DNA from: Schmidtea nova
Lineage: Eukaryota
Reading direction: 5' to 3'
DNA: 64,000 bases
NCBI GenBank assembly: GCA_044892505.1
Contig: CM097882.1
Span: 312,232,001 to 312,296,000, forward strand
The notes under the pieces were generated by a model. It made no database searches. It saw only the letters and a program-made list of their open reading frames with translations, and was not told the DNA's origin. Below, piece after piece: positions 4,172-6,871 of this stretch. The translations under genes were made by a program, and so were the position numbers. The stretch's first letter is position 1. The number at the start of each line of letters is the position of its first letter.

Positions 4172-6805
4172 ATGACTCAATCACCTGCTGCTCAGTCAAC
4201 TGCTGCTGATGTAATGACTCAGTCTATTGCAAATCAGTCAACTGTGACGAAGCAATATGAATTAGAAAACATTCTCAAATATCAAATTTCTAACTTGCAA
4301 TATTTTCAATCGATTTTGGATTATTTTTCTCAACTAAATGGTGGAAATCTCGCTACTGCCTCAGTTCTATCTGATGCGAATGCAAGTCAACAGAGTTCTT
4401 TCGATCAAGGATCTAAAATTTCTCCAAACCAATCTGATAATATGCCACTTTCTTATGCTGATATTGAGACTAAATTCACTAAATCAAAGGATTTACTGAT
4501 TGTCAAGCGCCTGGATTCATTGGAGTCTCAATTTATGAATATGGCTGAAAAGTTAGATTATTTGGTTTCTTTTTTTAATGGCTCTGTTGATGATTTATCA
4601 GATTTTCCTAAAGTAAATGAAAATAATTTAAATAATAATCCTTTTAATAAAAATAAAGTTTTTGATATCAAAGATAAATTAATTGTAAATAATGTAGTTT
4701 TAGATAAATCAATCATTTCAGAATTTATTGAAAATAATATTGCTAAAATTCCTAATAGTTTAATTGATGTAAATAATAAAATGTCTAATTCAAATAATAA
4801 ATTTCTAAATAACCCTAATAAAGAGAATGTTAAACATTTTAATAATCCCAAAGATACATCTTCAATTGATTTGACTAACGATAAAATTATGCCAAATGAA
4901 AACATAGAAATAATTATTAAAAATAATAAAAAATCTGTTAAAATTATAGAACCTTATAAAACAACTAAAGAGAAGTATGATAAATTTGAATTTAAAAGTC
5001 TGGTTCGTATTTTAACGAAAAGGGAACGCCAGAAAATCTTGAATGCCTTCCCTGCTTTAATACAACTAATTAAAAAGAAAGAGTCACAGAGTAAATATTT
5101 TGAAATTAATAAATTTCTTTCGAGCAAAGATTTTAATGTGAATCACTTGAATTTAAATAATTTTGATTATTTTTTCTATAGAAATTGTAATCTTTGTGTA
5201 TCTTTAAAATTGAACAACGCTCCTGTCATTTCATCAGCACCAAAACCTGTTGTTTTAAAAACTATTAAATTAATTGACCATAATATCGTCAAAATAAATT
5301 CTGAAATCCCTGACTTTGTTCGAGCTCCAATGTCAATTCGAAGATTTTTATTCAATCTTTCGCACGATCTTTCAAACACTGTTTCCATCAAGGATGAGAA
5401 ACACAGGGGAAATAAAATAAATAACATTCTTACTTCAATGAAACATAAACAACAATTACCAGATTATTTAATAAAATCAAACATTAAATACGAAAATGGT
5501 GAGTTCTTATTATTAGATTTGACTAACGATAAAATCAAATTGAACGACGATAATAACTTGATAAAATCAAATTTTTCTGAACTTACTAGAAGTCAGATTA
5601 AAAATCTTTACTATTCTTATCCTTCTCTTAAGGAAGTTTGTTTCGTTGAAAATCTTGAAACAAGATCATCATCCGTTAGTAAAATTATCGAATCTTTAAA
5701 GTTAATTAATGAATTTCCAAAAAATATCATTTTTAAAGAGGGTAAATTTTATCAGTCTGATAAAAGAACAATCTCACCTAGTAGTTCTCCTGACATAATG
5801 TTCAACCTAGGTCTTTTTAATTTAGCTAGTATGAGTAGAAAAGATTGTGAATTAAAATCCATTTTAGAGAAGACTGGTTGTGACTTTAAAATAGTTGAAA
5901 TAATATTCTACCTCAACTATTTAGGCTTGACTCAATCTTTAGAATTTTGCAAAAATCAAACTTATTCCGATTATGTGAGGAATTACGTCTGTAATTGCTG
6001 CTTGATAAACTCACTCTGTAGTATTGCTGATGTTGATTCGCTTTCATCTGAAGATTTTGAGGGTTGGGCGACCGAAATTGTTCAGAAAATCCCAGTTTCT
6101 TCCTATTACTTCAATAGCTGCCAGGAAAAGCTTTTAAAGCTGAAGCAATGGGACATTTCAACTAAAATCAAAAGAATCCATAACGTTATTTCACCTGAAA
6201 TAATATCTTATTTAAATAACTTTCTTGACTCTGTAGACGTAAAATTTCCATCTAAGTCTCAACAACATAATATTCTAATTAAATTAATGAAAGCTATCAA
6301 TGACATTAAAATTTTTGATGACATACACGGAAATAAAGCAAAAAGACTTGTTTACTTTTTGCTAAGAGATGCCAAGAAATATTTGAATAAAAATCAACGA
6401 TTCAGATTATTTGAATCGAGCAATAAATATTGCACTTTAGAGATGGAGAATATAATTTCAGTAATAATTGAGAACCTTACCAAAGTTACTGACCATGAAG
6501 TTACTACTCCTGAAATCACAGTTGAAGAAACGCCAATTGAAATAACTTGTGATCCTGAACCTATCGTCTTGATTAAGGAAATAAACTGTTTAAAATGTAA
6601 CAATATCATCGAAAAATGCATTCTTGTTAGAGATGGAACAAACGTCAACATCTGTGAAAGCTGTCTATTTGACGCAATTACCTTTGAAAAGCCGATTCCT
6701 GAAGCTACTAATTCGGATATCGAAGAAAATATAGAAACAAATTGTAAGAAATCTTGTCCAAGACCTAGAAAAACAGACAAGAAAACATCAACCAAAGCAA
6801 AATGA
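4172..6805 (+). CDS. ORF1, 877 aa, unknown function; N/K-rich, C-terminal CxxC-x18-CxxC finger
   Basis: Long ORF kept intact in all 7 complete copies; ends at a TGA in frame with ORF2. Confidence 0.85.
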   Translation: MTQSPAAQSTAADVMTQSIANQSTVTKQYELENILKYQISNLQYFQSILDYFSQLNGGNLATASVLSDANASQQSSFDQGSKISPNQSDNMPLSYADIETKFTKSKDLLIVKRLDSLESQFMNMAEKLDYLVSFFNGSVDDLSDFPKVNENNLNNNPFNKNKVFDIKDKLIVNNVVLDKSIISEFIENNIAKIPNSLIDVNNKMSNSNNKFLNNPNKENVKHFNNPKDTSSIDLTNDKIMPNENIEIIIKNNKKSVKIIEPYKTTKEKYDKFEFKSLVRILTKRERQKILNAFPALIQLIKKKESQSKYFEINKFLSSKDFNVNHLNLNNFDYFFYRNCNLCVSLKLNNAPVISSAPKPVVLKTIKLIDHNIVKINSEIPDFVRAPMSIRRFLFNLSHDLSNTVSIKDEKHRGNKINNILTSMKHKQQLPDYLIKSNIKYENGEFLLLDLTNDKIKLNDDNNLIKSNFSELTRSQIKNLYYSYPSLKEVCFVENLETRSSSVSKIIESLKLINEFPKNIIFKEGKFYQSDKRTISPSSSPDIMFNLGLFNLASMSRKDCELKSILEKTGCDFKIVEIIFYLNYLGLTQSLEFCKNQTYSDYVRNYVCNCCLINSLCSIADVDSLSSEDFEGWATEIVQKIPVSSYYFNSCQEKLLKLKQWDISTKIKRIHNVISPEIISYLNNFLDSVDVKFPSKSQQHNILIKLMKAINDIKIFDDIHGNKAKRLVYFLLRDAKKYLNKNQRFRLFESSNKYCTLEMENIISVIIENLTKVTDHEVTTPEITVEETPIEITCDPEPIVLIKEINCLKCNNIIEKCILVRDGTNVNICESCLFDAITFEKPIPEATNSDIEENIETNCKKSCPRPRKTDKKTSTKAK

Positions 6806-6810
6806 AGATG

Positions 6811-6871
6811 TGTGCCTGCATCAGCTCAATCGTCTGCCATTCCCTCTAATGAGACTGATGCAGAGAGCACA
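6811..6871 (+). promoter_or_regulatory. Predicted stem-loop 5 nt after ORF1 UGA; candidate readthrough stimulator (copy 2)
   Basis: TGTGC/GCACA, CTGCATCAG/CTGATGCAG and CTCA/TGAG pair (18 bp, two bulges, 21-nt loop); function inferred. Confidence 0.6.

Follow-up and report, generated by a model that had tools for sequence, protein, structure and literature searches.

Introduction

How long interspersed nuclear elements (LINEs) with two open reading frames (ORFs) express the second of them, ORF2, is an old question, and the answers so far are reinitiation (LINE-1, SART1) and 2A skipping. Here we describe a LINE from Schmidtea nova, found in a stretch of 64,000 nucleotides (nt) of contig CM097882.1 (assembly GCA_044892505.1, positions 312,232,001 to 312,296,000, forward strand), referred to throughout as the window. 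Its ORF1 and ORF2 share one frame and are separated by a single UGA, which is followed by an RNA hairpin. The ORF1/ORF2 boundary of this LIN-like element carries a real, family-wide recoding signal, and readthrough of the UGA at 6803 is the best explanation for the expression of ORF2, one that we consider probable, supported rather than demonstrated.

R5 reportedly has two ORFs, an account that goes back to Burke and colleagues in 2003. LIN25_SM is a planarian element that targets tRNA-Glu genes and belongs, within the NeSL clade, to the R5/LIN lineage (PMC4640811). Like the LIN25_SM/R5-LIN lineage, the element in the window is one without long terminal repeats (non-LTR), of the restriction-like endonuclease (RLE) type, that targets tRNA genes (PMC4640811). 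Its last ~40 nt match those of LIN25_SM by eye, with a common run AAAATATGTCAAACTT followed by an AT-rich end, a likeness to R5/LIN 3' ends that carries no alignment statistic (PMC4640811 S6 Fig). The targets differ: the element in the window sits at ~nt 19/20 of tRNA-Val(AAC), whereas LIN25_SM is found mostly in tRNA-Glu near the 5' end and LIN15_SM in tRNA-Arg, and the excerpt of PMC4640811 S6 Fig has no tRNA-Val entry. NeSL-1 and Utopia-1_TSP are also alike in having an Ulp1-like protease upstream of the reverse transcriptase (RT) and RLE.

Readthrough has been reported in some LTR retrotransposons. For non-LTR elements no case was present in the literature searched (titles and abstract openings, with most subscription journals and Repbase outside this scope), and the word 'retrotransposon' is absent from the excerpted passages of PMC13517186. 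The boundary resembles murine leukaemia virus (MuLV) gag-pro-pol, in which a structural ORF ends at an in-frame stop, a 3' RNA structure overlaps the start of the protease, and RT follows. MuLV is an LTR retrovirus with UAG-G, an 8-nt spacer and a pseudoknot, whereas the window has UGA-A, a bulged hairpin and a cysteine protease in a LINE. The sites of alphaviruses, furoviruses, kelch and SEPN1 are also similar, with UGA, a spacer of 6-9 nt, a stem of 10-16 base pairs (bp) and a conserved stem with a variable loop, all within coding sequence (PMC3159437). In contrast to the viral UGA sites, which have CUA or CGG after the stop and loops of ~100 nt or more, the window has AGA and a 21-nt loop. 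No selenocysteine insertion sequence (SECIS) was found at 3600-12300. Its 3' context, UGA-AGA-UGU, is neither of the alphavirus type (UGA-CUA/CGG) nor of the tobacco mosaic virus type (CARYYA). SART1, likewise a non-LTR element with two ORFs, makes use of a structure that lies downstream of its ORF1 stop (PMC5972666). Its stop and start overlap as UAAUG, the AUG of which opens ORF2, whereas the overlapping AUG in the window leads out of frame and ORF2 shares the frame of ORF1.

The stop codon and hairpin between ORF1 and ORF2

The boundary comprises the following features, the last six being its counterparts in the other complete copies of the element.

4172..6805, + strand: ORF1, 877 amino acids (aa), ending at TGA
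6803..6805, + strand: lone in-frame UGA, context AAA-UGA-AGA (GCA AAA TGA AGA TGT GTG CCT)
6806..11422, + strand: ORF2, 1538 codons from stop to stop
6802..6849, + strand: 15-codon mini-ORF, out of frame, containing the AUGs at 6802 and 6808
6811..6828, + strand: hairpin 5' arm, outer part 6811-6815 (holding GUG 6812) and core 6816-6828, encoding V-P-A-S-A
6850..6871, + strand: hairpin 3' arm, core 6850-6863 and outer part 6867-6871, encoding T-D-A-E-S-T
14845..14913, + strand: the same stop and hairpin in copy B
24151..24219, + strand: the same in copy C
33205..33273, + strand: the same in copy D
40995..41063, + strand: the same in copy E
49541..49609, + strand: the same in copy F
57837..57905, + strand: the same in copy G

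The stop-to-stop frames 4121-6805 and 6806-11422 are in the same frame in 7/7 complete copies, and all seven bear out the proposal of the initial annotation that a single UGA at 6803-6805 lies between in-frame ORFs, with 2416 codons if it is suppressed. From ATG 4172 to 11419 these codons include exactly one TGA, 18 TGG and 56 TGY. The first in-frame ATG downstream of the stop is at 6971 (M54 counted from GTG 6812), past the WFSDNDIDWYL motif, as had been claimed. The ATG at 6802 does open 15 out-of-frame codons; a second out-of-frame ATG, at 6808, had been overlooked.

The stem-loop described at 6811-6871 is a simple, bulged hairpin with a 21-nt loop. Its core (6816-6828/6850-6863) held up, with pair probabilities of 0.85-1.0, whereas the outer stem (6812-6815/6867-6870) is weak, with a pair probability of only 0.56 and a register that shifts with context. 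Counted from the stop, this outer stem follows after 5-6 nt and the core after 10 nt, and the UGA itself is unpaired in the folds. Compared with dinucleotide shuffles the stability of the hairpin has a z of -3.58; in a coarser scan (30 shuffles, 70-nt window) z was -2.27, and the hairpin was the most stable of 216 windows and only seventh by z. Of 2000 synonymous recodings of this peptide just 3 match that stability, and the real stop ranks 3rd of the 542 stop-like triplets in the element for the stability of the downstream fold. The identity of the region in the seven copies, which had been offered as evidence, is correct as a fact and was dropped as evidence, because only 107/7302 columns vary among the copies and 72 invariant nt are expected with a probability of 0.35. 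The longest stretch invariant across the seven, 480 nt at 6730-7209, spans the junction (p 0.07). A second hairpin, at 6913-6961 over the WFSDNDIDWYLENH codons, lies 40 nt past the first (z ~-3).

A UGA with a stem at a spacer of 5-6 nt is SEPN1-like, and the codon could specify selenocysteine, with the hairpin as a redefinition element like that of SEPN1. This is barely credible, as Rfam gave no SECIS match in 3600-12300 at expect values (E) up to 1 (a divergent SECIS could escape), the one loose SECIS-like pattern in 11101-11777 has a fold of only -5.5 kcal/mol, and the UGA is in an unconserved basic linker, not at a catalytic Cys.

Conservation of the boundary in related elements

A search with the junction region, in which the query read through the stop as X, covered 1.84 billion proteins and gave 60 matches. 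ORF1-like and ORF2-like matches were separate proteins, and none of the 60 was a full-length ORF1-ORF2 fusion. ORF1 ends 37-57 residues from its four-cysteine finger in five relatives, and 46 in the window; the relatives' ORF1 ends could in principle be contig ends. All eight ORF1 tails examined have A at position 2 of the last codon (5 Lys, 2 Asn, 1 Asp), for which local composition gives an expectation of ~3e-4 if the tails were independent, and they are not fully so.

These ORF1 ends bear on three further explanations, namely RNA editing (UGA to UGG-like), host-wide reassignment of UGA and an inactivating mutation spread by array amplification, which even together are extremely improbable. 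Near-identical copies with identical junctions do fit array amplification. With ORF1 ending at the corresponding position in relatives and the hairpin conserved among them, a local lesion or dead mutation is ruled out. As for editing, the stop is unpaired in the folds, and edited RNA copied back would give sense codons, which are seen in 0/7 copies. Against reassignment, which the initial annotation had rightly discounted, there is no second TGA in 2416 codons despite the 18 TGG.

An RT search found further full-length ORF2s, which form a 13-row clade with the window (Shimodaira-Hasegawa-like approximate likelihood ratio test (SH-aLRT) 99). Identity between the ORF2 of the window and those of relatives is 33-52% (11 aligned). 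The tree was a quick search with SH-aLRT only, of 41 rows picked from the 120 listed matches plus P0028, and did not include P0016, P0021, P0037 or P0076.

Covariation of the hairpin in related families, a check that the initial annotation had suggested, was assessed in 20 family N-termini with the protease start motif, 17 of them with the 3' anchor. Two short motifs (e.g. PASV, TDADST) stand around an unconserved loop of 4-9 codons in 15 of the 20, and correspond to the residues encoded by the two hairpin arms of the window. Pairing was tested only at codon positions fixed by the amino acid, in the window's own register. Across the 17 anchored rows 104/119 cells pair, compared with a shuffled mean of 94.8 (standard deviation 2.2), and 0/20000 shuffles reach 104; when the register is slid by one or two codons, 44-66 cells pair, and the background is 3.1 of 7. 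Five double-sided changes occur, at 4 of the 7 pairs, and both subclades of the RT tree have such changes. In one subclade six rows have U-A to C-G (Ser/Asp to Pro/Gly); P0021 has G-C to A-U, P0066 has both G-C to A-U and U-A to C-G, and P0001 and P0005 have U-A to A-U. Paired residue changes of this kind make little sense for the protein, yet they are Watson-Crick as RNA. The arms covary in a manner compatible with pairing, as deduced from the amino acids, and it is at amino-acid-fixed positions only that compensatory changes in the stem are found.

The loop is of 4-9 whole codons and free of stops in the 15 clear cases, and the region upstream of ATG 6971 is therefore translated in the ORF2 frame. 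Because this holds family-wide from the GUG to the protease, the ORF2 protein would start at or before 6812. A start at ATG 6971, which had been listed as a possibility, appears very unlikely, and initiation there was rejected, as the conserved start of the protease lies upstream.

The frame of ORF2 in relatives, which the initial annotation had named as a possible ground for refutation, could be read in a single decayed protein, P0037, where it is in frame with ORF1. The ORF1 finger of P0037 (E 3e-6, with a profile built without P0037) is in frame with VPAS, in a gapless run into SQSVPASV; Ser is aligned to the stop, and Val, not Met, precedes PAS.

Splicing across the stop had been considered in the initial annotation, which overlooked an in-frame candidate intron of 81 nt, from GTAAG at 6744 to the CAG ending at 6824. 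Both the donor-like and the acceptor-like sequence exist and are in phase, and the hairpin would then mask the acceptor and keep splicing rare. We consider this highly improbable. ORF1 holds 16 donor-like sites, so one near its end is unremarkable, and the candidate intron, rich in A, has a poor pyrimidine tract. Neither site is kept in all relatives: P0023, the closest ORF1 relative, has Thr at the aligned codon, which is incompatible with that GT, and P0066 and P0067 cannot have the acceptor AG. P0037, moreover, keeps the 5' arm of the hairpin. Cis-preference is established for LINEs, and under it reverse transcription of spliced RNA should give intronless copies, of which 0/7 were seen.

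Readthrough and reinitiation as possible routes to ORF2

The hairpin by itself does not tell readthrough and reinitiation apart, since a downstream structure is required for the coupling in SART1 as well. Under reinitiation, ORF2 would be a separate protein starting V/M-P-A-S. The near-cognate GUG 6812, six bases past the stop, would be its start, used in termination-reinitiation or in internal initiation, and the hairpin, as in SART1, would retain the post-termination ribosome. In SART1 the structure that coupling requires lies downstream of the stop-start site, and reinitiation also gives rise to ORF2 of LINE-1 (PMC5972666). Initiation at the GUG would explain the in-frame hairpin region equally well. 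However, it does not require ORF1 and ORF2 to share a phase, yet they do so in the window and in P0037, and the latter has Val at the GUG-equivalent position. The GUG is also part of the stem, and the core begins at +5 relative to it; to initiate there, a ribosome would need to melt the 5' arm completely (ribosome coverage: PMC13517186), and the AUGs at 6802 and 6808 would divert ribosomes out of frame. On this evidence we regard initiation at the GUG as unlikely.

Readthrough is supported by the shared phase of ORF1 and ORF2, the adenines 5' of the stop, the core stem 10 nt downstream and the two AUGs, which are nearer to the stop than GUG 6812 and both out of frame. A single in-frame stop between conserved ORFs and a stable 3' stem at ~6-10 nt, both present here, are among the features of structure-stimulated readthrough. 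Adenines 5' of the stop favour readthrough, and the spacers of MuLV, alphaviruses, kelch and SEPN1 measure 6-9 nt (PMC3159437). A spacer of 8 nt or longer is given elsewhere, and the 10 nt to the core is near the entry-channel distance discussed there (PMC13517186). The readthrough put forward in the initial annotation is therefore retained as the best-supported reading through the position of the relatives' ORF1 stop, the covariation of the arms and the one fused relative, and not through the hairpin by itself.

Several points weigh against it, the first three of which also favour reinitiation. At +4 the base is A, where alphavirus-type sites have C; the kelch context is UGA-AUG or UGA-AGC (PMC3159437). 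The evidence on phase consists of the window and one decayed, damaged protein, P0037. The start of 13/19 relatives is called at the GUG-equivalent codon, so that a start-like codon is conserved there, and conservation begins exactly at this codon; pairing with Ser/Cys-Thr codons may explain its conservation, but the codon may also be ATG. Mismatches occur in 10/105 cells of the 15 clear rows, two further rows pair poorly (5/7, 4/7) and three have no anchor. The pairing permutation ignores relatedness, the anchor pattern was written after viewing the sequences, and Ser, Leu and Arg were given their best codon, in test and null alike. The relatives are known as proteins alone, so that their stop identity, spacing, phase and third-position pairs are presumed and their ORF1 and ORF2 proteins are not linkable to one contig.

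Under readthrough, full-length element RNA would be translated from ATG 4172, and the majority of ribosomes would terminate at UGA 6803, releasing the 877-aa ORF1 protein. While the UGA occupies the A site, the hairpin core 10 nt downstream would sit at the mRNA entry channel and hinder termination. A minority of ribosomes would then insert a near-cognate amino acid and go on to make a 2416-aa ORF1-protease-RT-endonuclease polyprotein, which the Ulp1-like protease may process. A high ratio of ORF1 protein to RT would be fixed in this way, as in gammaretroviral gag-pro-pol.

The proteins of the element

The coding features within ORF1 and ORF2 are as follows.

6587..6664, + strand: four-cysteine finger at the C-terminus of ORF1, 46 codons ahead of the stop
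6899..7411, + strand: Ulp1/C48-like protease repeat 1, His/Asp/Gln/Cys kept (Pfam PF02902, E 6.3e-7)
7514..8551, + strand: two more degenerate Ulp1-like repeats, without catalytic His/Cys (hhalign E 6e-5 to 6e-7)
9185..9964, + strand: RT (Pfam PF00078, E 1.7e-29)
10868..11305, + strand: CCHC finger and restriction-like endonuclease region (CRRC..H..C, D1418, D1433, K1435)

ORF1 consists of N-terminal long helices, a helical core of unknown fold, a C-terminal CxxC...CxxC finger and a basic tail, and its start at ATG 4172 is backed by the relative P0019, which begins MTQS. The structure model has a predicted local distance difference test (pLDDT) score of 64 (14 sequences), with the core, ~275-780, confidently modelled. 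Foldseek gave no match to the model at E up to 0.001, the core not being searched alone, and residues 1-138 have generic long-helix structural matches only. There was also no curated Pfam match, no usable match in the ESM Atlas and nothing among 8000 candidates of a word-index search. ORF1 thus defines a protein family of its own, without a Pfam, Atlas or fold match. By analogy, its product may have a role in packaging the element RNA. A repeated motif, R/L-x-L-T/S...F-P-x-L, is present near residues 280 and 475.

ORF2 opens with three tandem Ulp1-like repeats (6899-8551), and a GG(G) linker follows the first in most relatives. Self-processing of the polyprotein by the first repeat is plausible from its sequence, because it keeps the catalytic residues and has this glycine-rich linker after it in most relatives. 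In more distant relatives (P0017, P0020, P0024) Cys motifs are seemingly kept in a second repeat. At the C-terminus, CRRC..H..C and D..D.K, which we take to be a CCHC finger and an endonuclease motif, are invariant in 12/12 aligned relatives; Pfam support for this region is weak (zf-RVT, E 0.051). The best named RT matches, among the matches listed, are R2-type/NeSL-like proteins at 27-37%. The RT, the CCHC finger with endonuclease, the Ulp1-like protease upstream of the RT and site-specific insertion place the element with the RLE-type elements of the NeSL clade. The 13-row clade that includes the window contains unnamed proteins only, with no named R5/LIN protein among the matches listed. 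Near the 3' end of ORF2 two adjacent hairpins (11327-11391; -27.7 kcal/mol, z ~-5) form a fold that is possibly an RT-binding or RNA-recognition element.

Just outside the hairpin clade, the protein P0073 (2039 aa) has C2H2-like fingers in one long ORF, and the ORF1 profile does not match it. Bacterial and archaeal genome contigs, scanned for the DNA of relatives, gave 3 loci (27-31%, RT only). L002 was rejected as a relative, being by its ORFs an unrelated L1/Tx1-like element; at 211-4971 it is a eukaryotic retrotransposon of this type on a contig filed in a bacterial metagenome-assembled genome, probably contamination.

Copies of the element in the tRNA-Val array

The 64-kb window is a tandem array of tRNA-Val(AAC) genes with a repeat unit of 253 bp and 19 intact tRNAs, in which one 7.6-kb element is present as 7 complete and 2 partial copies. 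Outside its ORFs the element and its target have these features.

4160..4171, + strand: element-specific leader, 12 nt, between target-array sequence and the ORF1 ATG (8/8 5' junctions alike)
11423..11777, + strand: 3' untranslated region, 355 nt, with an end LIN25_SM-like by eye
11778..12084, + strand: target, with the 3' junction within tRNA-Val(AAC), resuming at ~nt 20, then one intact tRNA-Val

All 3' junctions are at the identical tRNA-Val position (8/8), which is site-specific insertion in a multicopy RNA gene, and the 5' junctions are also identical (8/8). The ORF1 ATG lies just 12 nt into the element, where GGTTCGATG is a copy of tRNA-Val nt 1-9. Since no element-specific promoter is evident at this 5' end (4160-4174), transcription of the element may come from the tRNA array. 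Two element-to-element joins (3989-4171 and 38181-38363) have 183 nt between the elements and zero intact tRNA, whereas the other joins have 1-6 intact tRNAs. The junctions imply one of two events, duplication of ~170 bp of the target or deletion of ~80 bp, between which the tandem array cannot tell.

The seven complete copies are 99.2-99.6% identical to one another, with no extra stops and no frameshifts. Because all seven are intact and differences among them in ORF2 are 38 synonymous vs 20 non-synonymous, they look alive rather than dead. ORF1 sites show weaker constraint than ORF2, with 33 non-synonymous vs 16 synonymous. Polymorphisms occur in mosaic combinations across copies A-G (4121-62456), which suggests recombination or gene conversion within the array.

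Implications for LINE expression

What is described here is most likely a known mechanism, readthrough, in an element class where the literature searched showed no report. We lean towards the view that a whole clade of site-specific, protease-bearing LINEs makes its RT by hairpin-stimulated readthrough. This would be convergence with the gag-stop-protease-RT arrangement of gammaretroviruses, and the protease encoded by these elements would release the parts of the polyprotein. The junction is a 70-nt cassette with natural compensatory variants, and is directly testable. The matter also bears on how site-specific RLE elements are annotated and engineered: their functional RT protein may exceed the models of gene callers by ~880 residues. 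Were ORF2 instead reinitiated at the GUG, a conserved GUG-plus-hairpin signal would also be new for this group. If readthrough is true, its signal covaries across families that are only a third to half identical, and a conserved readthrough hairpin, otherwise found mainly in retroviruses and RNA viruses, would be added to the mechanisms of LINEs.

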